From Squalus acanthias (lineage: Eukaryota), in the NCBI GenBank assembly GCA_030390025.1, contig CM059429.1, forward strand, positions 138,570,001-138,634,000: a stretch of 64,000 nt of DNA, in the 5' to 3' direction. Both the position numbers and the translations under genes were made by a program. Positions 30,101 through 62,944 of this stretch are shown piece after piece. Below the pieces are notes generated by a model. The model saw nothing but the letters and a program-made list of their open reading frames with translations. It was not told where the DNA came from and made no database searches. Every line of letters starts with the position of its first letter. Within the stretch, counting starts at the first letter, position 1.

Positions 30101-31420
30101 TTCATCACCAAGAGTGGCTCAGTAGCACCACACTGCTGGCCGAGTCCTGAAGACATAGCTGCCAGTCTGGGCCTGCGACAGGTGGTGAGAGAACCAACAC
30201 GAGGGAAAAACCTACTTTACCTTGTCCTCACCAATCTACCTGTCACAGATGCATCTGCCCACGACAGCATTGGTAGCAGTGACCACCGCACAGTCATTGT
30301 GGAGATGAAGACCCTCCATCGTGTTGTGTGGCACTACCACCGTGCTAAATGGGATAGATTCAGAACAGAACAGCTCAAAACTGTGGGGCAGCAGCAGAAT
30401 TGTATTCCAACACGATCTGTAACCTCATGGCCTGACATATCCCTCACTCAACCATTACCATCAAGCCAGGGGACCAACCTTGGTTCAATAAGGAGTGTAG
30501 AAGAGCATGCCAGGAGCAGCACCAGGCGTACCTAAAAATGTGGTGCCAACCTGGGGAAGCTGCAACACAGGACTACATGCATGCTAAAAAGCAGAAGCAG
30601 CATGCTATAGCCAGAGCTAAGCGATTCCACAATCAACGTATCAGATCAAAGCTCTACAGTCCTTCCACATCCAGTCGTGAATGGTGGTGGACCATTAAAC
30701 AACTAACGGGAGGAGGAGGCTACATGAATATCCCCATCCTCAATGATGATGGAGCCCAGCACGTGAGTGCAAAAGACAAGGCTGAAGCATTTGCAACCAT
30801 CTTCAGCCAGAAGTGCTGAGTGGATGATCCATATCGGCCTACTCCTGAGGTCCCCACCACCACAGAAGCCAGTCTTCGGCCAATTCGATTCACTCCACAT
30901 GATATCAAGAAACGGCTGAGCGCACTGGATACAGCAAAGGCTGTGGGCCCCAACAACATCCCGGCTATCGTGCTGAAGACTTGTGCTCCAGAACTAGCCA
31001 CACCTCTAGCCCAGCTGTTCCAGTACAGCTATAACACTGGCATCTATCCGACAATGCGGAAAACTGCCCAGGTATGTCCTGTCCACAGAAAGCAGGACAA
31101 ATCCAATCCATCCAATTATCGCCCCATCAGTCTACTCTCAATCATCAGCAAAGTGATGGAAGGTGTCATCGACAGTGCTAACAAGCAGCACCTGCTCACT
31201 GATGCCCAGTTTGGGTTCCGCCAGGACCACTCGGCTCCAGACCTCATTACAACCTTGGTGCAAACATGGACAAAAGAACTGAATTCCAGAAGTGAGGTGA
31301 GAGTGACTGCCCTTGACATCAAGGCAGCATTTGACCGAGTGTGGCATCAAGGAGCCCTAGTAAAACTGAAGTCAATGGGAATCAGGGGGAAAACTCTCCA
31401 CTGGCTAGACTCATATCTAG

Positions 31421-31635
31421 TGTCATAAATCGCAAGTAACAACTCAGGAAGTACTACTGGGCGGCCAGCTGGGGCGCCGTTCAGGGAGTATAAATACTCA
31501 GGCATGGGCCCACCTTGGGCAGAGACAATCTGGAAACAGGAAGCTAGTGACTGCTAACTAGACCTCCATGTTTTGTTACAAGTTGATTAAAGCCTTGCTT
31601 TATGTTCAAGTGCGTAGTGAGTCTTTATTACGTCA
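31421..31635 (+). repeat. 5' LTR of Gypsy element
   Basis: TG...CA; TATAAA near 31489; ATTAAA at 31586-31591. Confidence 0.95.
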
Positions 31636-31727
31636 ATTTAATCAACTTGATATCGTCTCCACGCTTTGGGTGATTCGGAACAACCAGCTGCAACTCGAAC
31701 CACAGAAGGGCAAGAAACTGATCCATC

Positions 31728-33593
31728 ATGGAAAAACTCCTTAGACCCGCTCGTCTCGACCTGGACCCGAATGCACCTGCGGCAGCAAAGGTATGGAAGC
31801 ATTGGTTTCGTACCTTTAGCAACTTTCTTGAAGAATGTGGGGCGGATGTCCCTAATAAGTTACGAATGCTTATCAACTACGTGTCTCCTCATGTGTATGA
31901 TTATATTGAGGACTGTATAGACTATGACACTGCTATCGAAATCTTACAGCAGCTATATGTCAAGTCCACAAATGAAATCTTTGCTCGACACCTACTGGCT
32001 ACAACTCGGCAGCAGCCTGGGGAATCACTCGATGAATTTCTCCAGAAACTTCGCAGGCTCAGCAAGGATTGTAACCTTAAAGCAGTTTCAGCTGAACAGT
32101 ATCAAGAGGAACTAATCCGCTATTCCTTTATCAATGGAATCGCGTCCCCTTTTATACGTCAGCGCCTGCTGGAAAATAAAACCCTCAATTTACGGGCTGC
32201 TTATGACCAGGCGTGTTCCTTGGACTTGGCCAAGAAAAATGCAGACACTTATCTCCCACCACGTGCACGGGCGGCGGCTATCTCCTTTAATGAGTCTTTC
32301 GGTAGGTCTCGGGCGGATGCCCCCACTGATGTTGACTCTACTCTAACAGACGACAACCCTACCCTAGAGGCCTTCGCTGATGACGACCCCGCCCTAGCAG
32401 CATCCTGGCAATCAGGGAGAAAGTGTTTCTTTTGTGGAGGGGCGTGCCATCACAGAAAATTTTGCCCGGCTCGTAATGTGACCTGCAATCATTGCAGCAA
32501 GAAAGGACACTTTTCCAAGGTATGCCAGTCACGGGCCTTTGCTAACAAGAAAGGCCGCTCCTCTAAAGTATACCGGTCGAGAGCTCCTGTTAGCTTCACA
32601 GCTGCTATCTATGGAGCTGCTCCTCCCCCAAGAACTACTGTTAAGGCTACAGTTGCCGAAGGGAAAATTGCCCCTCCTCCCATCACGGCTGTTTTTCCCC
32701 AAAGTTTGTCCCATGCAGCCACGAAGGTTTCAGTAAATGGGCACACTCTAAGCGCGCTAATCGACTCCTGCAGCTCTGACAGCTTCATTAGTAAGCGGGC
32801 TGTCAACAGGTTAAAACTGCACATTTATCCCTCGGACAGGGAGATTGCAATGGCTCTGACGACTCTGACCACCAATTCTTCTGGCTTCTGTCTGGTCAAC
32901 CTCATCCTCAACGGCCGCACGTATCTCTCCACCCGGCTCGGAGTACTCGCAAACTTATGCAGCGATGTGCTTCTGGGACAGGACTTCCAGAAGCAGCACA
33001 AGAAGATCACTTTTGAGTTTGGAGGGTCAAGGCCGGAGCTTACCATTTCTAAGGTGCCGTTTTGTGCACTCTCGGCGGCCTTACTCGGTGAACCCTCCCT
33101 GTTTGCCAATCTTCCCCCCCGCTGTAAACCCATAGCCACCAAATCGCGGCGCTTTAGCCAAGATGATCGAGCGTTTATTGAGGCGGAAATCTCTCGCCTT
33201 TTAGTCGACGGTATTATCGAGCCATGTTCATCTCCCTGGCGGGCTCAGGTCGTCATCGTGAGGAATCCCTTAAAACAACATAAAAAACGTCTGTGTATCG
33301 ATTATTCGCAGACTATTAATCTATATACCGATCTGGATGCCTACCCGCTGCCACGCATAGATGACATGGTCAACAACCTTGCCAAATACAAGGTATTCTC
33401 GACCTTCGATTTAAAAAGCGCGTACCATCAGGTGCCACTGCAAGACTCCGACAAGAAGTATACGGCCTTTGAGGCCAATGGTCGGCTTTTCCAGTTTCGC
33501 CGCCTTCCAACGGGCCATGGATGGCCTAGTCCGGCAAGAGAACTTGACGGATACCTTTCCGTATTTAGACAATATCACTATTGCCGGCCATGA
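31728..33593 (+). CDS. Gypsy gag-protease-RT N-terminal part
   Basis: Two CX2CX4HX4C knuckles (CFFCGGACHHRKFC, CNHCSKKGHFSKVC), protease LIDSCS, RT motifs SPW, RLCIDY, DAYPLPRI, FDLKSAYHQV. Frame breaks after FRRLP. Confidence 0.9.
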   Translation: MEKLLRPARLDLDPNAPAAAKVWKHWFRTFSNFLEECGADVPNKLRMLINYVSPHVYDYIEDCIDYDTAIEILQQLYVKSTNEIFARHLLATTRQQPGESLDEFLQKLRRLSKDCNLKAVSAEQYQEELIRYSFINGIASPFIRQRLLENKTLNLRAAYDQACSLDLAKKNADTYLPPRARAAAISFNESFGRSRADAPTDVDSTLTDDNPTLEAFADDDPALAASWQSGRKCFFCGGACHHRKFCPARNVTCNHCSKKGHFSKVCQSRAFANKKGRSSKVYRSRAPVSFTAAIYGAAPPPRTTVKATVAEGKIAPPPITAVFPQSLSHAATKVSVNGHTLSALIDSCSSDSFISKRAVNRLKLHIYPSDREIAMALTTLTTNSSGFCLVNLILNGRTYLSTRLGVLANLCSDVLLGQDFQKQHKKITFEFGGSRPELTISKVPFCALSAALLGEPSLFANLPPRCKPIATKSRRFSQDDRAFIEAEISRLLVDGIIEPCSSPWRAQVVIVRNPLKQHKKRLCIDYSQTINLYTDLDAYPLPRIDDMVNNLAKYKVFSTFDLKSAYHQVPLQDSDKKYTAFEANGRLFQFRRLPTGHGWPSPARELDGYLSVFRQYHYCRP

Positions 33594-35637
33594 TCAAAAG
33601 GAGCATGACGCCAATCTTCAGAGATTTTTTGACGTACTCCGCCGTCGCCACTTAACGTTAAACGAATCCAAATCGGTGAAGTCGGTGCCATCGGTGAACA
33701 TTCTTGGCTACTGGGTGGGCAACGGTGTTATTAAACCGGACCCAGAGCGACTTCGTCCACTTCAGGAGCTCCCTCCCCCGACGAACCTCGGCTCTCTTCG
33801 TCGGGCACTTGGCATGTTTGCTTATTACGCAAAATGGATACCACACTTCTCCGATAAAATACAGCCCCTGCTCCATGCGAAGTCTTTTCCATTGGAAGCT
33901 ACGGCTATTTCTGCCTTCAACCTCCTCAAACGACAGCTGGAGAAAGCCACGCTTCGCTCCATTGACGAAAATCTTCCTTTTGTGGTCGAATGCGATGCAT
34001 CGGAGGTGGCGATCTCCGCTACCTTGAATCAAGGTGGCCGACCCGTGGCATTCCTATCCAGAACCTTGCAGGGTAGCGAGCTCCATTACCCCCCCGTCGA
34101 GAAGGAGGCTACGGCCATCATCGAGGCTGTACGCCAATGGGGTCATTTTCTTGCTCGGCGTCATTTTACGCTTATAACTGACCAGCGCTCTGTGGCCTTC
34201 ATGTTGGATAACCGGAGGCGCACGAAAATCAAAAATAATAAAATTCAACTCTGGAGGATGGAGCTGGCTGCCTTTGGATATACTATCTGTTACCGACCCG
34301 GCAAACAGAACGTGGCTCCAGATACCTTCACACGGGCATTTTGCTCCTCAATGTCAACGTCGACTCTGGCGGATTTGCATATGGACTTATGCCATCCTGG
34401 TGTGACCCGCATGTTGCACTTTGTGCGCTCCAAAAATCTACCATTTTCAACCGAGGACGTAAAGAAAACATGCTCCTCCTGTAGGATTTGTGCAGAATTG
34501 AAACCACAATTCTTTCGCCCATCAGATGGCTTACTCATACATGCAATGCAGCCTATGCAGAGGCTCAGCATAGACTTTAAAGGGCCATTGCCTTCGTTGA
34601 CAAGGAACACCTACCTACTTACGATGGTGGACGAGTATTCACGCTTTCCCTTCGCCTTCCCCTGCCCTAATATGCTTACCTCTACGGTAATTAAATGCCT
34701 CGATCAGGTCTTTTCCCTTTGCGGGACGGCCAATTTTATCCACACTGATCGGGGTCCCTCCTTTATGTCGAGTGAACTTAAAAGTTATCTCTCCCAACGG
34801 GGAATCGCCTCAAGTAGGACGACACCATATCACCCAATCGGTAACGGACAGGTTGAACGATACAATGCCATCATCTGGAACGCTGTCCGTCTGGCACTAA
34901 GGTCACGCAACCTGCCGGACCAGCAGTGGGAAACGGTGCTCCCCGACGCGTTACACTCTATCAGGTCTCTTCTCTCCACATCTACTAATGTCACGCCTCA
35001 TGAGCGATTCTTCAAATTCCGGCGTCGCTCTACACATGAGACCTCTCTACCGTCATGGTTGGTGGCTCCAGGCCCGGTACTACTCCGGAGGTTCGTCCGG
35101 TCTGCCAAAAACGACCCTCTCGTTGACGAGGTGGAGTTAACGGAGGTAAACCCCACGTATGCGCACGTACGGTACCCTGATGGCCGGGAGACCACCGTCT
35201 CGCTCCGAGATCTGGCTCCCTGCCCAACCGGTCACACGGGCCCGAATGATGAAGGATCCCCCGACAATGATATCAACACTCCGCACCCCTATGAAAATGA
35301 CGCCCCGCCTGGGACATCGGGGGATCTGCCGGCAACGCTACCGGATCAACTCAGGGAGCTGGACGCTCCCCGTAGGATGGCCACCCGAAACCAGGACGCC
35401 GGACAATCTCCAGCCACGACCCGGGATGAGGCCAGCTCCGCACCTGTGGGGACCCGCACCCGGAGTCATGATATTCCCAGTCCTCCACAGGATGATCAAG
35501 ATGACGCGGACTCTACTGACTTACCGGTACGGGCCAAGCGACCCAGGGACCAGGACACGGTCCGGGGAGACGTGCCTTCCAGTCACAAGCAGAGAGCTAA
35601 ACGTCTGCGGCTATTTCTGGTCCGCCTAGTCCGTTAA
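33469..35637 (+). CDS. Gypsy RT C-terminal part, RNase H and integrase
   Basis: FQRAMD, YLDN, RNase H ECDAS/EKEA/ITDQ, integrase HHCC and D(IDF)-D(TDRG)-E(VER). Confidence 0.9.
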   Translation: MRPMVGFSSFAAFQRAMDGLVRQENLTDTFPYLDNITIAGHDQKEHDANLQRFFDVLRRRHLTLNESKSVKSVPSVNILGYWVGNGVIKPDPERLRPLQELPPPTNLGSLRRALGMFAYYAKWIPHFSDKIQPLLHAKSFPLEATAISAFNLLKRQLEKATLRSIDENLPFVVECDASEVAISATLNQGGRPVAFLSRTLQGSELHYPPVEKEATAIIEAVRQWGHFLARRHFTLITDQRSVAFMLDNRRRTKIKNNKIQLWRMELAAFGYTICYRPGKQNVAPDTFTRAFCSSMSTSTLADLHMDLCHPGVTRMLHFVRSKNLPFSTEDVKKTCSSCRICAELKPQFFRPSDGLLIHAMQPMQRLSIDFKGPLPSLTRNTYLLTMVDEYSRFPFAFPCPNMLTSTVIKCLDQVFSLCGTANFIHTDRGPSFMSSELKSYLSQRGIASSRTTPYHPIGNGQVERYNAIIWNAVRLALRSRNLPDQQWETVLPDALHSIRSLLSTSTNVTPHERFFKFRRRSTHETSLPSWLVAPGPVLLRRFVRSAKNDPLVDEVELTEVNPTYAHVRYPDGRETTVSLRDLAPCPTGHTGPNDEGSPDNDINTPHPYENDAPPGTSGDLPATLPDQLRELDAPRRMATRNQDAGQSPATTRDEASSAPVGTRTRSHDIPSPPQDDQDDADSTDLPVRAKRPRDQDTVRGDVPSSHKQRAKRLRLFLVRLVR

Positions 35638-35675
35638 AGGAAGACTGGACTTCCAAACCTTTTAGGGAGGAAGAA

Positions 35676-35890
35676 TGTCATAAATCGCAAGTAACAACTC
35701 AGGAAGTACTACTGGGCGGCCAGCTGGGGCGCCGTTCAGGGAGTATAAATACTCAGGCATGGGCCCACCTTGGGCAGAGACAATCTGGAAACAGGAAGCT
35801 AGTGACTGCTAACTAGACCTCCATGTTTTGTTACAAGTTGATTAAAGCCTTGCTTTATGTTCAAGTGCGTAGTGAGTCTTTATTACGTCA
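35676..35890 (+). repeat. 3' LTR of Gypsy element
   Basis: Same 215 bp as 31421-31635. Confidence 0.95.
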
Positions 35891-36980
35891 CCTAGCACAA
35901 AGGAAGATGGTTGTGGTGGTTGGAGGTCAATCATCACAGCCCCAGGACAGTGCTGCAGGAGTTCCTCAGGGCAGTGTTCTAGGCCCAACCATCTTCAGCT
36001 GCTTCATCAATGACCTTCCCTCCATCATAAGGTCAGAAGTGGGGATGTTCGCTGATGACTGCACAGTGTTCAGTGCCATTTGCAACTCCTCAGATAATGA
36101 AGCATCTATGCCCGCATGCAGCAAAACCTGGACGATATTCAGGCTTGGGCCGATAAGTGGCAGGTAACATTCACGCCACACAAGTGCCAGGCAATGACTA
36201 TCTCAACAAGCGAGTGTCTAACCACCACCCCTTGACATTCAACGGCATTACCATTGCCGAATCCCCCACCATCAATATCCTGGGGATCACCATTGACCAG
36301 AAACATAACTGGACCAGCCACATAAATACTGTGGCAACAGGAGCAGGTCAGAGGCTGGATATTCTGCGGCGAGTGTCTCACCTCCTGACTCCCCAAAGCC
36401 TTTCCACCATCTTCAAGGCACAAGTCAGGAGTGTGATGGAATACTCTCCACTTGCTTGGATGAGTGCAGCTCCAACAACACTCATGAAGCTCGACACCAT
36501 CCAAGCCAAAGCAGCCCGCTTGATTGGCACCCCATCCACCACCTTAAACATTCACTCCCTCCACCATCGGCGTACCGTGGCTGCAGTGTGTACCATCTAC
36601 AAAATGCACTGCAGCAACTCGCCAAGGCTTCTTCGGCAGCACCTCCCAAACCCGCGACCTCTACCACCTAGGAGGACACGGGCAGCAGGCGCGTGGGAAC
36701 AACATCACCTAAAAGTTCCCCTCCAAGTCACACACCATCCTGACTTGGAAATATATCCTTCATCGTCGCTGGGTCAAAATCCAGGAACTCCCTCCCTAAC
36801 AGCATTACGGGAGTACCTTCACATATGGATTGCTGCGGTTCATGAAGGCGGCTCATCACCACCTTCTCAAGGGCAATTAGGGATGGGCAATAAATGCTGG
36901 CCTTGTCAGCGACGCCCACATCCCATGAATGAATAAAAAAAAAGGAGGTTGATTTTGACTTCCAAATAATGTTGCTCTAT

Positions 36981-37600
36981 TCACCTGTGACTAATGATTC
37001 TGTCTCTTAGCTGTCTAGCAGCACTAGCCACTGAACCTGCTTCCTGTTCTTCATGGGTCTGGGCTTCAGCATTATTAATGTCATAATTGTCAGGCTCTCT
37101 GGTATCCTCTGAGACATCTAGCACTAGTCCTTTCTTGATTGCAAAGTTCTGAAGCCTGCAGCATGTTACCACAATTTGTGAGCCAGTGTCGGGGGCATAA
37201 CTACAAAGAACCGCTGGAGATATCCACGCACCGGAGCCTTCTTTCGAGCATCCCAATGCCTTGCTTAATTCTTATCCTTGCCTTAATGAATTCTTCATTG
37301 CAGTGCTCCTCTGCAGCACTGGCACTCCTCCAAAGGGGTGGCATGCGACTTGGGAGTAGTGGGTATCCTTTGCCACCCAGTAACCATCTCGTTCCTTGCC
37401 CCTTCTGTTGAAATGGAGCTGGGACATCAGACTGACAATGTATAAAAGCATCATGACAGCTCCCAGCATGCCAGCATGGCAAACGAGCTGCACATTAAGG
37501 GAATAGAAGCTTTTGTGGTTCATATAAATATGGCAGTTTATATTTGGAGCCCGCAATACCACATGAGTACAATCACTAGCCCCGACAGCCCAACAGAATC
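36981..37600 (-). pseudogene. Degraded Harbinger (HARBI1-like) DDE transposase
   Basis: Overlapping minus-strand ORFs: NHKSFYSLNVQLVC, GSCHDAFI, WLLGGKGYPL, IGMLERRLRC, IVVTCCRLQNFA. Frameshifted. Confidence 0.75.
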
Positions 37601-38519
37601 CATCAACTCTGGAAAAACTTATTAGCCCTCTCAGTCATCTGTCTGGGAGCACTGTTGAATTGTATAAATTGAGATGCCTTGGCAAAATGGCCTTTGGTGA
37701 CATACCTTAGAGGAGTGCACAGCAAAATAGCTGATCTGGCAAAACATCCAGAGGACCTTGTATAAATGGCAGAACTCCAATGCCATCCTCATTGCTAATA
37801 TCTGAGAAGGATTTGACACAATGCAGCACTACCTGGAGCAGGTGCTGGCACCACTAACATCTGCATCCATCCCCCTGACGGAGAGGCCTCCACAGCAGCC
37901 AGTGTATTCAAAGTGGATGTTTTGACCATAGGCCTTTAGGCATTGTGAGACCATTTGGAGAGAACAATGGAATGTGGCTTCCAAGAGCTTCCAGGCGACA
38001 TCTTTCAGGATCTGCAGGTTCTAATTGATATTTACCCCTCTCTTCTACAGGCTTAACTGAACTCAGGTGCAATTTTGGTGTAAATACTGAAACAGCTGAT
38101 TTTGTCATCGTTATCCTATCATTTGCATAAATGCACCATTTGGGGACAGGACCAATTCTACCAAAATGTAGGGTATACTTTCGAATGGGCCTCTCCATGA
38201 CTTACACCCAAATTCTGGTTCCCTACACCAGAACTATACTATTTTTTGCACAAAAAGATTAGAATTCCAGGCCTCATATCTATTAATTATCCTCCTGCAT
38301 TTCTAGCCTCTGCCTCAACAATGGTCCTCACAACTTTTTTTTTTAACAGAACTTGACCTGCAGTCTTCTGTTTTTAAAAGCCTGACACAAATGTCAGCTT
38401 TTACCCCATCAAAAGTGAAATCCACCAGCCTAATCCCTGAGCATTGATCCCTGCTGAGTTCAGTTGATTGGAATCGTTGCAGCAGCAATGATCACTACAA
38501 TATTAAACTATATTTCATT

Positions 38520-40760: not shown

Positions 40761-43700
40761 CATTTACCTGATAGATGGTCCGCAAGTATGCATCGCAAAA
40801 GTGTTGGCTGTCAATCTATTCCATATTTATTGCTGGCCCATGTCAAGCCCTCCTACAGCCCTACAGCAGTTTAATTGTATAACATGCATACCCAGACTGC
40901 AACTTGCAATTGAAAGCCCTGGCATACTGACACCTTCAAAGGACTTCACACATCAAATTATTGTAGCATAACCTAACTACATAATACGCAGTTGTTTACT
41001 GACACACAGAATGGGCTGCAGGCTAGACTCAGGAAAATGGCACTTAATCCACGGGAACAGTTCTGAACTGGAGAACGGTTCAGAAATGACAACCCTTGAC
41101 TCCTTGTGAGCAGGTCATTTTGGGCAGCCAAGCATATACTTTACTTATATCCCTATTCTTACTTGGCTCCCACACAGGCAAATGCACAACATGCCATGAA
41201 TGGAAAATATTCTTACTAGCATTTCATACACAGGTATAGGTTAGTTTAATAATTTTCTTGTAAATTTTGCAATTATAATTGCATTTATTATGTATCAAGC
41301 CTTGGCCTCGATTTTAACTCTACTTGCCTGTCGGAAACCAGGCTGGGGGGTGGGGGGCAGTTAAAATGGAGCGGGCGACTTACCCACTGCATCCCATCCA
41401 AATCTTGATGACTGCAATTTTAAACCAGCGGGGTCCTCTTTAAGTATGGCCTGATCTGCCATTTTAACCTAAGGCTTGAGCAGGGGAGTAGGGGTGACTC
41501 CCACCAGGCCAAACCTGCCAGGAACAGCAGAGAGAGCCAGAAGAGGCATAGCGACAGAAGTTAATACATTTTTATTTAGGTTGTTTGTGTGCCAGCAACA
41601 GCAGGAATGCTCCTCTGGGTCGCACAAGGAAACCTTGAACCTTCTGTTGTGTGCGGGTCCGTTCTGTTCTTTGTGCGGGTCTGTTCTTTGTGTGGGTCTG
41701 TTCTTGTTGTGTATGGTCTGTTCTTGTTGTGCGCGGGTCTGTTCTTGTTGTGCGGGTCTGTTCTTTGTGTGGGTCTGTTCTTGTTGTGTATGGTCTGTTC
41801 TTGTTGTGCGGGTCTGTTCTTGTTGTGTGCGGGTCTGTTCTTGTTGTGCGGGTCTGTTCTTGTTGTGCGGGTCTGTTCTTGTTGTGCGGGTCTGTTCTTG
41901 TTGTGTGCGGGTCTGTTCTTGTTGTGCGGGTCTGTTCTTGTTGTGTGAGGGTCTGTTCTTGTTGTGCGGGTCTGTTCTTGTTGTGTGCGGGTCTGTTCTT
42001 GTTGTGCGGGTCTGTTCTTGTTGTGTGCGGGTCTGTTCTTGTTGTGTGCGGGTCTGTTCTTGTTGTGCGGGTCTGTTCTTGTTGTGCGGGTCTGTTCTTG
42101 TTGTGCGGGTCTGTTCTTGTTGTGTGCGGGTCTGTTCTTGTTGTGTGCGGGTCTGTTCTTGTTGTGTGCGGGTCTGTTCTTGTTGTGTGCGGGGCTGTTC
42201 TTGTTGTGTGCGGGTCTGTTCTTGTTGTGTGCGGGTCTGTTCTTGTGTGTGCGGGTCTGTTCTTGTTGTGTGCGGGTCTGTTCTTGTTGTGCGGGTCTGT
42301 TCTTGTTGTGTGCGGGTCTGTTCTTGTTGTGTGCGGGTCTGTTCTTGTTGTGTGCGGGTCTGTTCTTGTTGTGCGGGTCTGTTCTTGTTGTGCGGGTCTG
42401 TTCTTGTTGTGTGCGGGTCTGTTCTTGTTGTGTGCGGGTCTGTTCTTGTTGTGTGCGGGTCTGTTCTTGTTGTGTGCGGGTCTGTTCTTGTTGTGCGGGT
42501 CTGTTCTTGTTGTGTGCGGGTCTGTTCTTGTTGTGTGCGGGTCTGTTCTTGTTGTGCGGGTCTGTTCTTGTTGTGTGCGGGTCTGTTCTTGTTGTGCGGG
42601 TCTGTTCTTGTTGTGCGGGTCTGTTCTTGTTGTGCGGGTCTGTTCTTGTTGTGTATGGTCTGTTCTTGTTGTGTGCGGGTCTGTTCTTGTTGTGCGGGTC
42701 TGTTCTTGTTGTGTGCGGGTCTGTTCTTGTTGTGCGGGTCTGTTCTTGTTGTGTGCGGGTCTGTTCTTGTTGTGTGCGGGTCTGTTCTTGTTGTGTATGG
42801 TCTGTTCTTGTTGTGTGCGGGTCTGTTCTTGTTGTGTGCGGGTCTGTTCTTCTTGTTGTGCGGGTCTGTTCTTGTTGTGCGGGTCTGTTCTTGTTGTGTG
42901 CGGGTCTGTTCTTGTTGTGTGCGGGTCTGTTCTTGTTGTGTGCGGGTCTGTTCTTGTTGTGCGGGTCTGTTCTTGTTGTGTGCGGGTCTGTTCTTGTTGT
43001 GTGCGGGTCTGTTCTTGTTGTGTATGGTCTGTTCTTGTTGTGTATGGTCTGTTCTTGTTGTGTGCGGGTCTGTTCTTGTTGTGTGCGGGTCTGTTCTTGT
43101 TGTGCGGGTCTGTTCTTGTTGTGTATGGTCTGTTCTTGTTGTGTATGGTCTGTTCTTGTTGTGTGCGGGTCTGTTCTTGTTGTGTGCGGGTCTGTTCTTG
43201 TTGTGTGCGGGTCTGTTCTTGTTGTGTATGGTCTGTTCTTGTTGTGTGCGGGTCTGTTCTTGTTGTGCGGGTCTGTTCTTGTTGTGTGGGTCTGTTCTTG
43301 TTGTGTGCGGGTCTGTTCTTGTTGTGTGCGGGTCTGTTCTTGTTGTGTGCGGGTCTGTTCTTGTTGTGTATGGTCTGTTCTTGTTGTGTGCGGGTCTGTT
43401 CTTGTTGTGTGCGGGTCTGTTCTTGTTGTGCGGGTCTGTTCTTGTTGTGTGCGGGTCTGTTCTTGTTGTGCGGGTCTGTTCTTGTTGTGTATGGTCTGTT
43501 CTTGTTGTGTGCGGGTCTGTTCTTGTTGTGTGGGTCTGTTCTTGTTGTGCGGGTCTGTTCTTGTTGTGTATGGTCTGTTCTTGTTGTGTGCGGGTCTGTT
43601 CTTGTTGTGCGGGTCTGTTCTTGTTGTGTGCGGGTCTGTTCTTGTTGTGCGGGTCTGTTCTTGTTGTGTGCGGGTCTGTTCTTGTTGTGTATGGTCTGTT

Positions 43701-46700
43701 CTTGTTGTGTGCGGGTCTGTTCTTGTTGTGTGGGTCTGTTCTTGTTGTGCGGGTCTGTTCTTGTTGTGCGGGTCTGTTCTTGTTGTGTGCGGGTCTGTTC
43801 TTGTTGTGTGTGGTCTGTTCTTGTTGTGTGCGGGTCTGTTCTTGTTGTGCGGGTCTGTTCTTGTTGTGTATGGTCTGTTCTTGTTGTGTGCGGGTCTGTT
43901 CTTGTTGTGTGGGTCTGTTCTTGTTGTGTGCGGGTCTGTTCTTGTTGTGCGGGTCTGTTCTTGTTGTGTGCGGGTCTGTTCTTGTTGTGTGCGGGTCTGT
44001 TCTTGTTGTGTGCGGGTCTGTTCTTGTTGTGCGGGTCTGTTCTTGTTGTGTGCGGGTCTGTTCTTGTTGTGCGGGTCTGTTCTTGTTGTGTATGGTCTGT
44101 TCTTGTTGTGTGCGGGTCTGTTCTTGTTGTGTATGGTCTGTTCTTGTTGTGTGCGGGTCTGTTCTTGTTGTGCGGGTCTGTTCTTGTTGTGTGCGGGTCT
44201 GTTCTTGTTGTGTGCGGGTCTGTTCTTGTTGTGTGCGGGTCTGTTCTTGTTGTGCGGGTCTGTTCTTGTTGTGCGGGTCTGTTCTTGTTGTGCGGGTCTG
44301 TTCTTGTTGTGTGCGGGTCTGTTCTTGTTGTGTGCGGGTCTGTTCTTGTTGTGTGCGGGTCTGTTCTTGTTGTGCGGGTCTGTTCTTGTTGTGCGGGTCT
44401 GTTCTTGTTGTGTGCGGGTCTGTTCTTGTTGTGTGCGGGTCTGTTCTTGTTGTGTGCGGGTCTGTTCTTGTTGTGTGCGGGTCTGTTCTTGTTGTGTAGG
44501 GTCTGTTCTTGTTGTGTGCGGGTCTGTTCTTGTTGTGTGCGGGTCTGTTCTTGTTGTGTATGGTCTGTTCTTGTTGTGCGGGTCTGTTCTTGTTGTGCGG
44601 GTCTGTTCTTGTTGTGTGCGGGTCTGTTCTTGTTGTGCGGGTCTGTTCTTGTTGTGTATGGTCTGTTCTTGTTGTGTCTGTTCTTGTTGTGTATGGTCTT
44701 GTTGTGTGCGGGTCTGTTCTTGTTGTGCGGGTCTGTTCTTGTTGTGCGGGTCTGTTCTTGTTGTGCGGGTCTGTTCTTGTTGTGTGCGGGTCTGTTCTTG
44801 TTGTGCGGGTCTGTTCTTGTTGTTGCGGGTCTGTTCTTGTTGTGCGGGTCTGTTCTTGTTGTGTGCGGGTCTGTTCTTGTTGTGTGCGGGTCTGTTCTTG
44901 TTGTGTGCGGGTCTGTTCTTGTTGTGTGCGGGTCTGTTCTTGTTGTGCGGGTCTGTTCTTGTTGTGCGGGTCTGTTCTTGTTGTGTGCGGGTCTGTTCTT
45001 GTTGTGCGGGTCTGTTCTTGTTGTGTGTGGTCTGTTCTTGTTGTGTATGGTCTGTTCTTGTTGTGTATGGTCTGTTCTTGTTGTGTGCGGGTCTGTTCTT
45101 GTTGTGTCGGGTCTGTTCTTGTTGTGCGGGTCTGTTCTTGTTGTGCGGGTCTGTTCTTGTTGTGTGCGGGTCTGTTCTTGTTGTGCGGGTCTGTTCTTGT
45201 TGTGTGTGGTCTGTTCTTGTTGTGTCGGGTCTGTTCTTGTTGTGTGCGGGTCTGTTCTTGTTGTGTGCGGGTCTGTTCTTGTTGTGTGCGGGTCTGTTCT
45301 TGTTGTGTGCGGGTCTGTTCTTGTTGTGTGCGGGTCTGTTCTTGTTGTGTGCGGGTCTGTTCTTGTTGTGTGCGGGTCTGTTCTTGTTGTGCGGGTCTGT
45401 TCTTGTTGTGTGCGGGTCTGTTCTTGTTGTGCGGGTCTGTTCTTGTTGTGCGGGTCTGTTCTTGTTGTGCGGGTCTGTTCTTGTTGTGCGGGTCTGTTCT
45501 TGTTGTGCGGGTCTGTTCTTGTTGTGTGCGGGTCTGTTCTTGTTGTGTGCGGGTCTGTTCTTGTTGTGTGCGGGTCTGTTCTTGTTGTGTGCGGGTCTGT
45601 TCTTGTTGTGTGCGGGTCTGTTCTTGTTGTGTGCGGGTCTGTTCTTGTTGTGCGGGTCTGTTCTTGTTGTGCGGGTCTGTTCTTGTTGTGTGCGGGTCTG
45701 TTCTTGTTGTGCGGGTCTGTTCTTGTTGTGTGCGGGTCTGTTCTTGTTGTGTGCGGGTCTGTTCTTGTTGTGTCGGGTCTGTTCTTGTGTGTGCGGGTCT
45801 GTTCTTGTTGTGTGTGGGTCTGTTCTTGTTGTGTGCGGGTCTGTTCTTGTTGTGTGCGGGTCTGTTCTTGTTGTGTGCGGGTCTGTTCTTGTTGTGCGGG
45901 TCTGTTCTTGTTGTGTCGGGTCTGTTCTTGTTGTGTATGGTCTGTTCTTGTTGTGCGGGTCTGTTCTTGTTGTGCGGGTCTGTTCTTGTTGTGCGGGTCT
46001 GTTCTTGTTGTGCGGGTCTGTTCTTGTTGTGCGGGTCTGTTCTTGTTGTGTGCGGGTCTGTTCTTGTTGTGTGAGGGTCTGTTCTTGTTGTGCGGGTCTG
46101 TTCTTGTTGTGTGCGGGTCTGTCTTGTTGTGTATGGTCTGTTCTTGTTGTGGCGGGTCTGTTCTTGTTGTGTGCGGGTCTGTTCTTGTTTGTGCGGGTCT
46201 GTTCTTGTTGTGTCGGGTCTGTTCTTGTTGTGCGGTCTGTTCTTGTTGTGTATGGTCTGTTCTTGTTGTGCGGGTCTGTTCTTGTTGTGCGGGTCTGTTC
46301 TTGTTGTGCGGGTCTGTTCTTGTTGTGTGCGGGTCTGTTCTTGTTGTGTGCGGGTCTGTTCTTGTTGTGCGGGTCTGTTCTTGTTGTGTGGGTCTGTTCT
46401 TGTTGTGGCGGGTCTGTTCTTGTTGTGCGGGTCTGTTCTTGTTGTGTGCGGGTCTGTTCTTGTTGTGCGGGTCTGTTCTTGTTGTGCGGGTCTGTTCTTG
46501 TTGTGTGCGGGTCTGTTCTTGTGTGTGCGGGTCTGTTCTTGTTGTGTGCGGGTCTGTTCTTGTTGTGTGCGGGTCTGTTCTTGTTGTGTGCGGGTCTGTT
46601 CTTGTTGTGTGCGGGTCTGTTCTTGTTGTGTGCGGGTCTGTTCTTGTTGTGTGCGGGTCTGTTCTTGTTGTGCGGGTCCTGTTCTTGTTGTGTCGGGTCT

Positions 46701-49700
46701 GTTCTTGTTGTGTCTGGTCTGTTCTTGTTGTGTCGGGTCTGTTCTTGTGTGTGCGGGTCTGTTCTTGTTGTGCGGGTCTGTTCTTGTTGTGTGCGGGTCT
46801 GTTCTGTTGTGTGCGGGTCTGTTCTTGTTGTGTATGGTCTGTTCTTGTTGGTGCGGGTCTGTTCTTGTTGTGTGCGGTCTGTTCTTGTTGTGTGCGGGTC
46901 TGTTCTTGTTGTGTGCGGGTCTGTTCTTGTTGTGTGCGGGTCTGTTCTTGTTGTGTGCGGGTCTGTTCTTGTTGTGTGCGGGTCTGTTCTTGTTGTGTGC
47001 GGGTCTGTTCTTGTTGTGCGGGTCTGTTCTTGTTGGTGCGGGTCTGTTCTTGTTGTGCTGGGTCTGTTCTTGTTGTGCGGGTCTGTTCTTGTTGTGAGGG
47101 TCTGTTCTTGTTGTGTGGGTCTGTTCTTGTTGTGTATGGTCTGTTCTTGTTGTGGCGGTCTGTTCTTGTTGTGCGGGTCTGTTCTTGTTGTGTGCGGGTC
47201 TGTTCTTGTTGTGTCGGTCTGTTCTTGTTGTGTGGGGTCTGTTCTTGTTGTGCGGGTCTGTTCTTGTTGTGTGCGGGGTCTGTTCTTGTTGTGTGGGTCT
47301 GTTCTTGTTGTGTGCGGGTCTGTTCTTGTTGTGTGCGGGTCTGTTCTTGTTGTGCGGGTCTGTTCTTGTTGTGCGGGTCTGTTCTTGTTGTGGCGGGTCC
47401 TGTTCTTGTTGTGCGGGTCTGTTCTTGTTGTGTGCGGGTCTGTTCTTGTTGTGTAGGGTCTGTTCTTGTTGTGTCGGGTCTGTTCTTGTTGTGTGCTGGT
47501 CTGTTCTTGTTGTGTGCGGGTCTGTTCTTGTTGTGCGGGTCTGTTCTTGTTGTGTGCGGGTCTGTTCTTGTTGTGTGCGGGGTCTGTTCTTGTTGTGTGC
47601 GGGTCTGTTCTTGTTGTGCGGGTCTGTTCTTGTTGTGTGCGGGTCTGTTCTTGTTGTGTATGGTCTGTTCTTGTTGTGTTGGTCTGTTCTTGTTGTGTGC
47701 GGGTCTGTTCTTGTTGTGTGCGGGTCTGTTCTTGTTGTGCGGGTCTGTTCTTGTTGTGTGCGGGTCTGTTCTTGTTGTGTGCGGGTCTGTTCTGTTGTGC
47801 GGGTCTGTTCTTGTTGTGTGCGGGTCTGTTCTTGTTGTGTGCGGGTCTGTTCTTGTTGTGTCTGGTCTGTTCTTGTTGTGCGGGTCTGTTCTTGTTGGTG
47901 CGGGTCTGTTCTTGTTGTGTGCGGGTCTGTTCTTGTTGTGTGCGGGTCTGTTCTTGTGTGTGCGGGTCTGTTCTTGTTGTGCGGGTCTGTTCTTGTTGTG
48001 TGCGGGTCTGTTCTTGTTGTGTGCGGGTCTGTTCTTGTTGTGTCTGGTCTGTTCTTGTTGTGTGCGGGTCTGTTCTTGTTGTGTATGGTCTGTTCTTGTT
48101 GTGTGCGGGTCTGTTCTTGTTGTGCGGGTCTGTTCTTGTTGTGTGCGGGTCTGTTCTTGTTGTGCGGGTCTGTTCTTGTTGTGTGGTCTGTTCTTGTTGT
48201 GTAGGGTCTGTTCTTGTTGTGTGCGGGTCTGTTCTTGTTGTGTGCGGGTCTGTTCTTGTTGTGTGCGGGTCTGTTCTTGTTGTGTGCGGGTCTGTTCTTG
48301 TTGTGAGGGTCTGTTCTTGTTGTGTGCGGGTCTGTTCTTGTTGTGCGGGTCTGTTCTTGTTGTGTATGGTCTGTTCTTGTTGTGTGCGGGTCTGTTCTTG
48401 TTGTGCGGGTCTGTTCTTGTTGTGTGCGGGTCTGTTCTTGTTGTGTGCGGGTCTGTTCTTGTTGTGTGCGGGTCTGTTCTTGTTGTGTGCGGGTCTGTTC
48501 TTGTTGTGTATGGTCTGTTCTTGTTGTGTGGGTCTGTTCTTGTTGTGTGCGGGTCTGTTCTTGTTGTGCGGGTCTGTTCTTGTTGTGTATGGTCTGTTCT
48601 TGTTGTGCGGGTCTGTTCTTGTTGTGTATGGTCTGTTCTTGTTGTGTGCGGGTCTGTTCTTGTTGTGTATGGTCTGTTCTTGTTGTGCGGGTCTGTTCTT
48701 GTTGTGTATGGTCTGTTCTTGTTGTGCGGGTCTGTTCTTGTTGTGTGCGGGTCTGTTCTTGTTGTGTGCGGGTCTGTTCTTGTTGTGTGCGGGTCTGTTC
48801 TTGTTGTGTGCGGGTCTGTTCTTGTTGTGTGCGGGTCTGTTCTTGTGTGTGCGGGTCTGTTCTTGTTGTGTGCGGGTCTGTTCTTGTTGTGTGCGGGTCT
48901 GTTCTTGTTGTGTGCGGGTCTGTTCTTGTTGTGCGGGTCTGTTCTTGTTGTGTGCGGGTCTGTTCTTGTGTGTGCGGGTCTGTTCTTGTTGTGTGCGGGT
49001 CTGTTCTTGTTGTGTGCGGGTCTGTTCTTGTTGTGTGCGGGTCTGTTCTTGTTGTGTGCGGGTCTGTTCTTGTTGTGCGGGTCTGTTCTTGTTGTGTGCG
49101 GGTCTGTTCTTGTTGTGTGCGGGTCTGTTCTTGTTGTGTGGGTCTGTTCTTGTTGTGCGGGTCTGTTCTTGTTGTGTGCGGGTCTGTTCTTGTTGTGCGG
49201 GTCTGTTCTTGTTGTGTGCGGGTCTGTTCTTGTTGTGTGCGGGTCTGTTCTTGTTGTGTGCGGGTCTGTTCTTGTTGTGTGCGGGTCTGTTCTTGTTGTG
49301 CGGGTCTGTTCTTGTTGTGTAGGGTCTGTTCTTGTTGTGTGCGGGTCTGTTCTTGTTGTGTGCGGGTCTGTTCTTGTTGTGTGCGGGTCTGTTCTTGTTG
49401 TGAGGGTCTGTTCTTGTTGTGCGGGTCTGTCTTGTTGTCTGTTGTGCGGGTCTGTTCTTGTTGTGCGGGTCTGTTCTTGTTGTGTGCGGGTCTGTTCTTG
49501 TTGTGTGCGGGTCTGTTCTTGTTGTGCGGGTCTGTTCTTGTTGTGTGCGGGTCTGTTCTTGTTGTGTGCGGGTCTGTTCTTGTTGTGCGGGTCTGTTCTT
49601 GTTGTGTGCGGGTCTGTTCTTGTTGTGTCGGGTCTGTTCTTGTTGTGCGGTCTGTTCTTGTTGTGCGGGTCTGTTCTTGTTGTGTCTGGTCTGTTCTTGT

Positions 49701-52700
49701 TGTGCGGTCTGTCTTGTTGTGCGGGTCTGTTCTTGTTGTGTGCGGGTCTGTTCTTGTTGTGTGCGGGTCTGTTCTTGTTGTGCGGGTCTGTTCTTGTTGT
49801 GTGCGGGTCTGTTCTTGTTGTGTGCGGGTCTGTTCTTGTTGTGCGGGTCTGTTCTTGTTGTGTGCGGGTCTGTTCTTGTTGTGTGCGGGTCTGTTCTTGT
49901 TGTGTGCGGGTCTGTTCTTGTTGGTGCGGGTCTGTTCTTGTTGTGTGCGGGTCTGTTCTTGTTGTGTGCGGGTCTGTTCTTGTTGTGTGCGGGTCTGTTC
50001 TTGTTGTGCGGGTCTGTTCTTGTTGTGCGGGTCTGTTCTTGTTGTGTGCGGGTCTGTTCTTGTTGGTGCGGGTCTGTTCTTGTTGTGTGCGGGTCTGTTC
50101 TTGTTGTGTGCGGGTCTGTTCTTGTTGTGCGGGTCTGTTCTTGTTGTGCGGGTCTGTTCTTGTTGGCGGGTCTGTTCTTGTGTGTGCGGGTCTGTTCTTG
50201 TTGTGTGCGGGTCTGTTCTTGTTGTGTCGGGTCTGTTCTTGTTGTGTGCGGGTCTGTTCTTGTTGTGTGCGGGTCTGTTCTTGTTGTGCGGGTCTGTTCT
50301 TGTTGTGCGGGTCTGTTCTTGTTGTGCGGGTCTGTTCTTGTTGTGTGCGGGTCTGTTCTTGTTGTGTGCGGGTCTGTTCTTGTTGTGTGCGGGTCTGTTC
50401 TTGTTGTCGTGGGGTCTGTTCTTGTTGTGTGCGGGTCTGTTCTTGTTGTGAGGGTCTGTTCTTGTTGTTGCGGTCTTGTTGTGGCGGGTCTGTTCTTGTT
50501 GTGCGGGTCTGTTCTTGTTGTGCGGGTCTGTCTTGTTGTGTATGGTCTGTTCTTGTTGTGTGCGGGTCTGTTCTTGTTGTGTGCGGGTCTGTTCTTGTTG
50601 TGTGCGGGTCTGTTCTTGTTGTGTGGGTCTGTTCTTGTTGTGTGTGGGTCTGTTCTTGTTGTGCGGGTCTGTTCTTGTGTGTGGGTCTGTTCTTGTTGTG
50701 TGCGGGTCTGTTCTTGTTGTGTGCGGGTCTGTTCTTGTTGTGTGCGGGTCTGTTCTTGTTGTGTGCGGGTCTGTTCTTGTTGTGTGCGGGTCTGTTCTTG
50801 TTGTGTGGGTCTGTTCTTGTTGTGTATGGTCTGTTCTTGTTGTGTGCGGGTCTGTTCTTGTTGTGCGGGTCTGTTCTTGTTGTGTGCGGGTCTGTTCTTG
50901 TTGTGCGGGTCTGTTCTTGTTGTGTGCGGGTCTGTTCTTGTTGTGTGCGGGTCTGTTCTTGTTGTGCGGGTCTGTTCTTGTTGTGTATGGTCTGTTCTTG
51001 TTGTGTGCGGGTCTGTTCTTGTTGTGTGCGGGTCTGTTCTTGTTGTGTGCGGGTCTGTTCTTGTTGTGTGCGGGTCTGTTCTTGTTGTGTGCGGGTCTGT
51101 TCTTGTTGTGTGCGGGTCTGTTCTTGTTGTGCGGGTCTGTTCTTGTTGTGTGCGGGTCTGTTCTTGTTGTGTGCGGGTCTGTTCTTGTTGTGCGGGTCTG
51201 TTCTTGTTGTGCGGGTCTGTTCTTGTTGTGTGCGGGTCTGTTCTTGTTGTGTGCGGGTCTGTTCTTGTTGTGTGCGGGTCTGTTCTTGTTGTGTGCGGGT
51301 CTGTTCTTGTTGTGTGCGGGTCTGTTCTTGTTGTGTGCGGGTCTGTTCTTGTTGTGTGCGGGTCTGTTCTTGTTGTGTGCGGGTCTGTTCTTGTTGTGTG
51401 CGGGTCTGTTCTTGTTGTGTGCGGGTCTGTTCTTGTTGTGCGGGTCTGTCTTGTTGTGCGGGTCTGTTCTTGTTGTGCGGGTCTGTTCTTGTTGTGTGCG
51501 GGTCTGTTCTTGTTGTGTATGGTCTGTTCTTGTTGTGTGCGGGTCTGTTCTTGTTGTGTGCGGGTCTGTTCTTGTTGTGTGCGGGTCTGTTCTTGTTGTG
51601 TGCGGGTCTGTTCTTGTTGTGTGCGGGTCTGTTCTTGTTGTGCGGGTCTGTTCTTGTTGTGTGCGGGTCTGTTCTTGTTGTGTGCGGGTCTGTTCTTGTT
51701 GTGCGGGTCTGTTCTTGTTGTGTGCGGGTCTGTTCTTGTTGTGTGCGGGTCTGTTCTTGTTGTGTGCGGGTCTGTTCTTGTTGTGTGCGGGTCTGTTCTT
51801 GTTGTGTGCGGGTCTGTTCTTGTTGTGTGCGGGTCTGTTCTTGTTGTGTGCGGGTCTGTTCTTGTTGTGTGCGGGTCTGTTCTTGTTGTGTGCGGGTCTG
51901 TTCTTGTTGTGTGCGGGTCTGTTCTTGTTGTGTGCGGGTCTGTTCTTGTTGTGTGCGGGTCTGTTCTTGTTGTGTGCGGGTCTGTTCTTGTTGTGCGGGT
52001 CTGTTCTTGTTGTGTGCGGGTCTGTTCTTGTTGTGTATGGTCTGTTCTTGTTGTGTATGGTCTGTTCTTGTTGTGTGCGGGTCTGTTCTTGTTGTGTATG
52101 GTCTGTTCTTGTTGTGTGCGGGTCTGTTCTTGTTGTGTGCGGGTCTGTTCTTGTTGTGTGCGGGTCTGTTCTTGTTGTGTGCGGGTCTGTTGTTGTGCGG
52201 GTCTGTTCTTGTTGTGTGCGGGTCTGTTCTTGTTGTGTATGGTCTGTTCTTGTTGTGTGTGGGTCTGTTCTTGTTGTGCGGGTCTGTTCTTGTTGTGTGC
52301 GGGTCTGTTCTTGTTGTGCGGGTCTGTTCTTGTTGTGTGGGTCTGTTCTTGTTGTGTGCGGGTCTGTTCTTGTTGTGCGGGTCTGTTCTTGTTGTGCGGG
52401 TCTGTTCTTGTTGTGTGCGGGTCTGTTCTTGTTGTGTATGGTCTGTTCTTGTTGTGTATGGTCTGTTCTTGTTGTGTGCGGGTCTGTTCTTGTTGTGCGG
52501 GTCTGTTCTTGTTGTGAGCGGGTCTGTTCTTGTTGTGCGGGTCTGTTCTTGTTGTGTGTGGTCTGTTCTTGTTGTGCGCGGGTCTGTTCTTGTTGTGCGG
52601 GTCTGTTCTTGTTGTGTGCGGGTCTGTTCTTGTTGTGTATGGTCTGTTCTTGTTGTGTGCGGGTCTGTTGTTGTGAGCGGGTCTGTTCTTGTTGTGTGCG

Positions 52701-58589: not shown

Positions 58590-59027
58590 GGGCAACACGG
58601 TGGCATAGTGGTTAGCACTGGTGCCTCACAGCGCCAGAGACCCGGGTTCGAATCTGACCTCGGGTGACTGTCTGTGTGGAGTTTGCACATTCTCCCCGTG
58701 TCTGCGTGGGTTTCCTCCGGGTGCTCCGGTTTCCTCCCACAGTCCAAAAATGTGTGGGTTAGGTTGATTTGGCTATGATAAATTGACCCTTAGTGTTAGG
58801 GGGGATTAAATATGTGGGGTTATGGGGATAGGATGGGATATGTTAGGGGGAATTAAATACGTGGGGTTATGGGGGTAGGGTGGGATATGTGTACTGTGGG
58901 GATTGGAGCAGGGACAGGGTACTGGATTTGGATGATCAGCCATGATCGTGTTGAATGGCGGAGCAGGCTCGACGGGCCGAATGGCCTTCTCCTGCTCCTA
59001 GATTCTATGTTTCTATGTTTCTATGTT
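58590..59027 (+). mobile_element. V-SINE (HE1-like) inserted in satellite, copy 1
   Basis: Same head and V-domain as 10211; CR1-like tail ending (CTATGTTT)n. Confidence 0.9.
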
Positions 59028-62000: not shown

Positions 62001-62506
62001 TGTTGTTGTGCGCGGGTCTGTTCTTGTTGTGTGCGGGTCTGTTCTTGTTGTGCGGGTCTGTTTTTGTTGTGTGTGGGTCTGTTCTTGTTGTGTGTGGGTC
62101 TGTTCTTGTTGTGTGCGGGTCTGTTCTTGTTGTGTGCGGGTCTGTGCTTGTTGTGCGGGGCTGTTCTTGTTGTGTGCGGGTCTGTTCTTGTTGTGTGCGG
62201 GTCTGTTCTTGTTGTGTGCGGGTCTGTTCTTGTTGTGTGCGGGTCTGTTCTTGTTGTGTGCGGGTCTGTTCTTGTTGTGTGCGGGTCTGTTCTTGTTGTG
62301 TGCGGGTCTGTTCTTGTTGTGTGCGGGTCTGTTCTTGTTGTGTGCGGGTCTGTTCTTGTTGTGCGGGTCTGTTCTTGTTGTGCGGGTCTGTTCTTGTTGT
62401 GTATGGTCTGTTCTTGTTGTGTATGGTCTGTTCTTGTTGTGTGCGGGTCTGTTCTTGTTGTGTATGGTCTGTTCTTGTTGTGTATGGTCTGTTCTTGTTG
62501 TGTGCG

Positions 62507-62944
62507 GGGCAACACGGTGGCATAGTGGTTAGCACTGGTGCCTCACAGCGCCAGAGACCCGGGTTCGAATCTGACCTCGGGTGACTGTCTGTGTGGAGTT
62601 TGCACATTCTCCCCGTGTCTGCGTGGGTTTCCTCCGGGTGCTCCGGTTTCCTCCCACAGTCCAAAAATGTGTGGGTTAGGTTGATTTGGCTATGATAAAT
62701 TGACCCTTAGTGTTAGGGGGGATTAAATATGTGGGGTTATGGGGATAGGATGGGATATGTTAGGGGGAATTAAATACGTGGGGTTATGGGGGTAGGGTGG
62801 GATATGTGTACTGTGGGGATTGGAGCAGGGACAGGGTACTGGATTTGGATGATCAGCCATGATCGTGTTGAATGGCGGAGCAGGCTCGACGGGCCGAATG
62901 GCCTTCTCCTGCTCCTAGATTCTATGTTTCTATGTTTCTATGTT
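62507..62944 (+). mobile_element. V-SINE (HE1-like) in satellite, copy 2 (duplicate of copy 1)
   Basis: Identical on reading to 58590-59027, offset 3917. Confidence 0.9.

Follow-up and report, generated by a model that had tools for sequence, protein, structure and literature searches.

Minus-strand synthesis in LTR elements must begin next to the U5 end, and the Gypsy element found in the Squalus acanthias DNA analysed here (a 64-kb stretch, referred to as the window) lacks a TGG at that position, raising the question of what serves as its primer. The sequence-only reading had reported a perfect 13-nt self-complement at the primer binding site (PBS) position, overlapping an ATTAAA, and the match proved exact: CAAGTTGATTAAA is present at 31579-31591 and 35834-35846 (+), with its reverse complement at 31637-31649. 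The junction runs from the terminal CA of the LTR through a single A (31636) into TTTAATCAACTTG, which starts at +2 after the LTR and is the exact complement of 31579-31591, here named the LTR arm. The ATTAAA, a probable poly(A) signal, starts at 31586 and forms the last six bases of the arm. Comparison of these sequences across copies and families makes it probable that the element primes minus-strand DNA from this stretch of its own LTR instead of from a tRNA.

The element is complete and young, occupying 31421-35890, with all its features on the + strand. The two 215-nt LTRs (31421-31635 and 35676-35890, TG...CA) are 100% identical, the second arm copy being the one in the 3' LTR. The target-site duplication (TSD) is TCTAG on the left (31416-31420) and CCTAG on the right (35891-35895), with one mismatch, and 5-bp TSDs are also present in other copies of the window family. 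The insertion is hosted by a LINE-type reverse transcriptase (RT) remnant, read from the translation, which covers 30820-31420 and resumes at 35891 to ~36940. A TATA-like box was found at 31489-31496 (TATAAA from 31489; kept in three subfamilies of this genome), and a polypurine tract, AGGGAGGAAGAA, at 35664-35675. Translation and Pfam place gag with two CCHC knuckles, protease and the N-terminal part of RT at 31728-33593, and the rest of RT (YLDN), RNase H and integrase at 33415-35637, without a chromodomain match. The order protease-RT-RNase H-integrase is that of Gypsy elements, the best solved match is the Ty3-G Gag-Pol (E 3.5e-29), and no chromodomain was found in the window element by Pfam at E<=0.001. 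Pfam and the window translation thus agree with the first description of the element as a non-chromodomain one with two zinc knuckles and a YLDN RT. The reading frame of the window copy is broken inside RT, and an 8-bp deletion lies near 31707, downstream of the LTR/PBS junction. Many copies of the window family have a single 1315-codon frame.

Within the whole window, CAAGTTGATTAAA has only three matches at up to one mismatch, against a chance mean of 0.16. At least 13 complementary bases were obtained in 5 of 200,000 shuffled LTRs and at 303 of 200,000 random real positions (window 1-40000), the latter figure probably being inflated by the window's own repeats. The helix between arm and PBS dominates the predicted folds of the leader, with pair probabilities of 0.52-1.0 in four folds, including that of the whole leader. 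An Rfam scan of 31400-31760 gave no tRNA or snRNA, and its four matches (E 5-9) were far under the gathering scores.

Deletion of a TGG in the window copy was considered as an artefact and ruled out, since the junction is identical in all 30 fetched copies of the window family. A pattern with free PBS positions retrieved 513 genomic junctions with the same flanks, so the arrangement is not a local defect, and the same 13-mer PBS was found in 97 of 100 junctions among the matches listed. The 513 young-family junctions, and 828 across three subfamilies in another pattern search (100 among the matches listed), indicate a recent burst. Solo LTRs are common among the fetched loci. Twenty other Gypsy loci of the same genome served as control: 13 had no usable LTR pair, and the seven with an LTR pair showed TGGCGA or TGGTGA at the 5' LTR end and a self-complement of at most 7 nt. 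Loci L232, L233, L240, L243, L244, L246 and L250 form another Gypsy group, whose LTRs measure 120-140 nt and are followed, after 4-6 nt, by a TGGCGA-type PBS.

Sequence changes within the genome were found on both sides of the helix. In a sister subfamily, whose LTR is ~90% identical to that of the window family, the arm carries a T>C, and each of the 13 junctions fetched has the corresponding A>G in the PBS; the 5' arm has since decayed at a CpG in three of them. An older family in the same genome has a 12-bp version of the helix. Within the young family, searches for variants at PBS positions 1-12 gave 11 matches, two of which represent one tandem duplicate, and only one of the ten independent variants is compensated, most being single-site changes. 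The compensated one, L155, has a G>T/C>A pair in the 5' LTR and PBS; because its TSDs are mismatched, the 3' LTR was probably acquired from a different copy. Both L155 and L171, with discordant LTRs and mismatched TSDs, are probably recombinants between copies. The same compensated change is present in both LTRs of L056, from another host. Copies L153 and L154 share an uncompensated C>T in the PBS, leaving a G-U pair, together with an LTR marker, and their arms are unchanged; the PBS is therefore not always overwritten by the arm and can be inherited without it. Taken together, the single-copy variants fit selection and templating alike. Four LTRs (L148 and L178-L180; three solo and one 3' LTR) carry ATTAAA>AGTAAA in the arm, and their other variants differ.

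The analysis was extended to related families by joining the best 80 of 155 metagenome loci from an alignment search with four Squalus acanthias loci, which resulted in 36 gag-defined clusters. A register-blind search found the helix in 31 of the 36, with cluster representatives picked by best helix score and related families counting as non-independent samples; the pairing was set by hand in the window cluster, where the blind top score chose another, and in L094 and L095, offset by one base. The helix measures 9-19 bp and keeps one register across families, in which CA/N/TTT at the LTR end pairs with AAA/RCY (slashes mark borders). The five clusters in which it was not found are L032, L035 and L042, with only 45-118 nt of upstream sequence, L086, with 260 nt, and L087/L088, with ~2 kb and no LTR pair; the last two misses are unexplained or due to truncation. 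A separate integrase-pattern search gave six loci, two of them without a 5' end, and the four with a readable junction all show 14-15 bp in the same register; one is a helix family at 40% polyprotein identity. Complementarity, fixed register, covariation and the missing TGG are thus shared by about 35 families.

The borders of the helix are sharply defined. The three bases before it are CAA in 29 of 31 families, CAG in one and CAT in one, and the LTR end was fixed independently by the 3' LTR in nine. The arm is followed by R, then C or T, then Y or G, most often as GCCT (15 families) or ACCT (five). Pairs 1-9 are Watson-Crick in 30-31 of the 31 families and pairing then fades (29 at pair 12, 17 at pair 16 and nine at pair 17), and the pair just beyond the border on the inner side is Watson-Crick in none. 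The sequences themselves vary widely, with 30 distinct PBS 12-mers among the 31 families. At pairs 5-12, 242 of 248 cells are Watson-Crick, compared with 127±7 when arms are swapped between families and a maximum of 158 in 20,000 permutations. Covariation of the two 13-mers in related families, on which the sequence-only reading had staked its proposal, is therefore strong, and no TGG occurs within 10 nt of the LTR end in any of the 31. Together, the covariation and the missing TGG support that reading's suggestion of tRNA-independent priming, and it is likely that some thirty-five related animal families self-prime in this manner.

Homologues of the Gag protein were found in crustaceans, cnidarians, molluscs, a crinoid and hagfish, to which pol homologues add tunicates and a nematode; 1,694 clusters at 50% identity match Gag at E<=1e-10. 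No relatives were found among viral contigs through gag or pol alignment. The GTDB bacterial metagenome-assembled genomes L351-L356 contain contigs with this animal-type retrotransposon, most likely as host contamination. The L034 locus, from another host, has a 13-nt arm and PBS identical to 31579-31591 of the window and lies apart from the window family in the RT tree, which could reflect convergence or an ancestral preferred sequence.

The surroundings of the helix suggest how it could be processed. The last six bases of the arm are ATTAAA in 13 families and AATAAA in seven, with similar hexamers in most of the others and about one third of the hexamers non-canonical. A stem of at least 3 bp, starting at the second base behind the arm and closing within 25 nt, was predicted in 18 of the 31 families, compared with 3.6±1.7 in shuffled sequences (maximum 12 in 2,000). 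The window family has only a 4-bp version shifted by two bases (31594-31610), next to the predicted cut site between 31591 and 31592 at the 3' border of the arm, and a 9-bp hairpin is predicted at the U5 end (31612-31633). A third duplex, of the pretzel type, was not supported when the loop was crudely tested for pairing with the sequence that follows the PBS (mean z -0.54, 31 families), and no conserved hairpin was found upstream of the arm (mean z 0.04). Across families the 5' arm copy lies 24-72 nt from the PBS, and in many an ATG is found 15-50 nt from the start of the helix.

The position of the RNA start bears on the length of the primer. Three subfamilies of this genome retain a TATA box 101-103 nt upstream of the arm 3' end, which favours an RNA start ~60 nt before the arm, predicted near 31520 in the window copy from its TATA-like box; no fixed distance from TATA to arm was found across families. 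A geometry distinct from that of Tf1 is thus plausible for this genome. Reading the arm itself as an Initiator-like sequence (TCAGT-type motif) would presumably shorten the primer to 11 nt, as in Tf1, but covariation extends to pairs 12-16, for which a longer RNA is required. A cap-templated C behind the PBS helix was not evident by eye.

A mechanism can be proposed on this basis. In the genomic RNA, pairing of the 5' arm with the PBS would come first and would bury the 5' poly(A) signal as well, whereas the 3' copy of that signal is not followed by a PBS and would remain accessible. Cleavage would then follow at AAA/RCY, where the helix meets the small hairpin, and would leave a paired 3'-OH; judging from Tf1, the nuclease is most likely the RNase H encoded by the element. 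From there, RT would extend through the spacer base and U5 and then through the portion of R beyond the cut, and the resulting short cDNA could transfer to the 3' R by means of the ~15-25 nt that separate the cut from the poly(A) site. Plus-strand synthesis would finally copy the arm and rebuild the PBS, which would explain why both sides change jointly. With the RNA start probably ~60 nt upstream of the arm in this genome, a 5' fragment longer than the 11-mer of Tf1 would be released, and its 3' end would act as the primer. This long-fragment geometry is the least certain part of the model, and a search for a conserved feature that would stop plus-strand copying after ~15 nt of such a fragment found none.

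Other roles for the helix were weighed against priming. With AATAAA or ATTAAA at the arm's end in 20 of the 31 families, and related hexamers in most of the remainder, the helix might do no more than mask the 5' poly(A) signal and possibly, given the ATG close to its start in many families, the start codon nearby, priming being left to something else. Such masking would be specific to the 5' end, where alone a PBS follows the LTR, and a comparable RNA stem, the polyA hairpin of HIV-1, hides the 5' poly(A) signal within R while a tRNA primes; there, the partner strand is not the PBS itself, as it is in the present clade. Masking alone is nevertheless unlikely, as it does not require a helix that begins exactly at +2 after CA, no other primer site is present near the LTR end, and about a third of the hexamers are non-canonical; the helix could well serve masking in addition to priming. 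Priming by the 3' arm copy, with the RNA 3' end trimmed to AAA and paired with the PBS so that the RNA closes into a loop, would fit the occurrence of the arm in each of the two LTRs, with terminal A residues beside the poly(A) region, and would spare an internal cut near the cap. In the standard LTR scheme, however, strong-stop DNA anneals over the 3' arm and RNase H destroys it before the plus strand rebuilds the PBS, and the 5' copy, only 24-72 nt away, is predicted to occupy the site, so that we give this possibility little credence. It is hardly credible that the inverted repeat is a DNA-level by-product of template switching that perfects quasi-palindromes, without any priming role. Template switching can create paired changes in single copies and could have yielded those of L056 and L155, but it leaves unexplained the single register in about 35 families, the inner border never being paired (0 of 31) and the missing tRNA site, and the control Gypsy family shows nothing similar.

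A different primer acting in trans was also considered, namely a 5' fragment of tRNA-Thr(AGT) cut after nucleotide 24 in the D-arm, with the LTR arm as a mimic or placeholder. The sequence-only reading had seen no tRNA-CCA complement (TGG) at the PBS position. A host tRNA does pair there, less well than the own arm: nucleotides 14-24 of tRNA-Thr(AGT), in the D-arm, pair 11 contiguous bases with the window PBS (one G-U) in the same register, ending at AAA/GC (-10.9 compared with -15.1 kcal/mol for the own arm). The Squalus acanthias tRNA set comprises 197 genes, 149 of them distinct, with 22 clear anticodon types; it is incomplete and biased to Thr, Ile and Lys. The commonest letter of the arms is that of tRNA-Thr(AGT) at 13 of 15 positions, and against the 31-arm profile the tRNA segment reaches 19.0 bits, the arms themselves spanning 7.9-21.3. 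That score was not attained by any of 3,000 shuffled sets of 44 tRNAs, a figure that overstates the surprise because the hypothesis was formed after seeing the arms. On average, 10.6 of 15 positions of an arm agree with the segment, and 6.1 of 9 when the hexamer is set aside. Copia lineages provide a precedent for half-tRNA priming, according to the accessible text of PMC6317226. Pairing with tRNA-Thr reaches at least 10 contiguous bases in only nine of the 31 PBSs and at most four in 14, whereas all 31 pair with their own arm, which beats the best of the 149 distinct host tRNA-like sequences in 28 families (one host's incomplete tRNA set being compared with families from many hosts). tRNA-Thr cannot therefore be the general primer, and the change in L056 and L155 breaks its pairing and keeps that of the arm, so that priming by this fragment in trans is very unlikely.

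The likeness itself may reflect an origin from a tRNA primer, a structure preferred by the nuclease or RT, or a coincidence between poly(A) context and D-loop. A more elaborate scenario, which we regard as doubtful, would have the clade exchanging its tRNA primer, independently of Tf1/sushi, for an LTR segment derived from tRNA-Thr (the D-arm and an anticodon-stem-like hairpin); this segment would be cut internally, tens of bases from the cap, and would double as poly(A) signal, with one helix switching between suppression of 5' polyadenylation and the start of reverse transcription. Many tRNA-Thr-like copies with degenerate anticodon arms are present in this genome (C26:38.7-41.7 Mb, and dispersed as L201-L230), possibly as a tRNA-derived repeat. 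Self-priming from the LTR arm remains the favoured explanation, since the own arm is the only sequence that pairs next to U5 in every family, with its 3' end at the fixed AAA/RCY. Overall, the helix is a real feature of the whole clade and most likely serves tRNA-independent self-priming from an unusual primer position.

Regarding its placement, the present clade shares with the Mag lineage the lack of a chromodomain, short LTRs, an adjacent pair of CCHC knuckles and aquatic animal hosts. Two adjacent knuckles, which we take to be the hallmark of Mag in Gag, were found in 111 of 120 homologues, so the earlier label of Mag-like is a tentative one, drawn solely from the knuckle pair. The RT motif is YxDN, not YxDD, in 81 of the 94 homologues in which a motif was found (P0263-P0382; 26 of 120 unmatched by the pattern). 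The RT core is 26-33% identical to that of a TGG-primed YLDD Gypsy family of the same genome, and the clade was split from the TGG-primed group at 100/100 in an unrooted tree without named references, in which two rows of that group have no verified PBS. Clade names were not found in protein databases, and clade peptide motifs were not found in the supplements of PMC6238403 (five files, one scan unreadable) or in 11 of the 14 supplementary files of PMC8556966. A term search of PMC2774666 did not find Cigr, PBS or self-priming text.

The closest functional analogues are Tf1/sushi chromoviruses. The accessible parts of the sources describe a PBS complementary to the own LTR in these elements (PMC7175516, PMC4600332 for Tj1, bioRxiv 10.1101/2022.12.06.519325; see PMC5341516 for Tf2 of Schizosaccharomyces pombe), as in the present clade, and in Tf1 it is the first 11 nt that anneal to the PBS, with RNase H cleavage falling between nt 11 and 12 (PMC7175516). 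Tf1/Tf2, Tj1, Tosmo and Tcry1 also share the Gypsy domain order. The present clade differs in having no chromodomain (none among the precomputed domains of 120 homologues), a helix of 9-19 bp compared with 11 in Tf1, and an arm that shares bases with a probable poly(A) signal and is perhaps set back ~60 nt from the RNA 5' end. Behind the arm comes a local hairpin, the RT motif is YxDN, and the three-duplex pretzel, linked to chromodomain-bearing Tf1/sushi elements in the available text of bioRxiv 10.1101/2022.12.06.519325, was not found. The window element would therefore work like Tf1 without being a Tf1/sushi member by the chromodomain test.

Self-priming has also been predicted outside Tf1/sushi, from a PBS complementary to the LTR, in Tcn1 chromoviruses and in the TAR Copia elements Houba and Osr-1 of plants (PMC6317226, as far as its accessible text goes), whereas the present clade is animal, Gypsy and non-chromodomain. 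Skipper of dictyostelids is likewise a Gypsy element without a TGG PBS, but according to the accessible part of PMC5006619 it has a polypyrimidine stretch with no complement in the LTR and carries a chromodomain. Osser, Bryco and Bianca, Copia elements that prime from an internal tRNA segment (same portion of PMC6317226), are the nearest analogue of the tRNA-Thr likeness. The PBSs of such half-tRNA elements follow a fixed tRNA; those of the present clade, with their 30 distinct 12-mers and the 14 of 31 that pair with tRNA-Thr over at most four bases, follow their own LTR.

The literature search returned no described self-priming in an animal Gypsy clade without chromodomain; subscription journals, Repbase Reports, GyDB and supplements might hold one. 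The accessible text on mollusc Gypsy clades (PMC6238403) makes no mention of PBS or tRNA; other sources, also available in part, cover Metaviridae clades (PMC3670739), errantivirus PBSs (PMC13524379) and LTR evolution, including whether hairpin priming preceded or followed tRNA priming (PMC3601003). In the accessible literature, Gypsy self-priming is tied to Tf1/sushi chromoviruses, and a separate animal clade would add an independent origin. The tRNA-Thr likeness bears on the order of hairpin and tRNA priming discussed in the available portion of PMC3601003 and, if the tRNA-Thr origin is true, would preserve a trace of a tRNA primer becoming a self-primer. The clade spans cnidarians, molluscs, crustaceans, a crinoid, tunicates, a nematode and hagfish, with hundreds of young copies in the present genome, and its primer, if the proposed mechanism is true, overlaps a poly(A) signal. 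Host 3' tRNA fragments target PBSs, and a clade that truly self-primes could not be blocked by them. Annotation software relying on a tRNA PBS would overlook these elements or label them wrongly; their LTR ends can be found from one LTR through the rule CA/N/TTT...AAA/RCY.

Outside the element, a short frame at 37272-37634 (-) resembles what we take to be a Harbinger/DDE transposase remnant. A 17-kb satellite extends over ~41600-58600, with 19/21-nt units of the GCGGGTCTGTTCTTGTTGTGT type that are stop-free in several frames. Beside it, a 100% identical repeat was found at 58468-58767 and 62385-62684, with a spacing of 3917 nt, representing either a recent duplication or an assembly duplicate.
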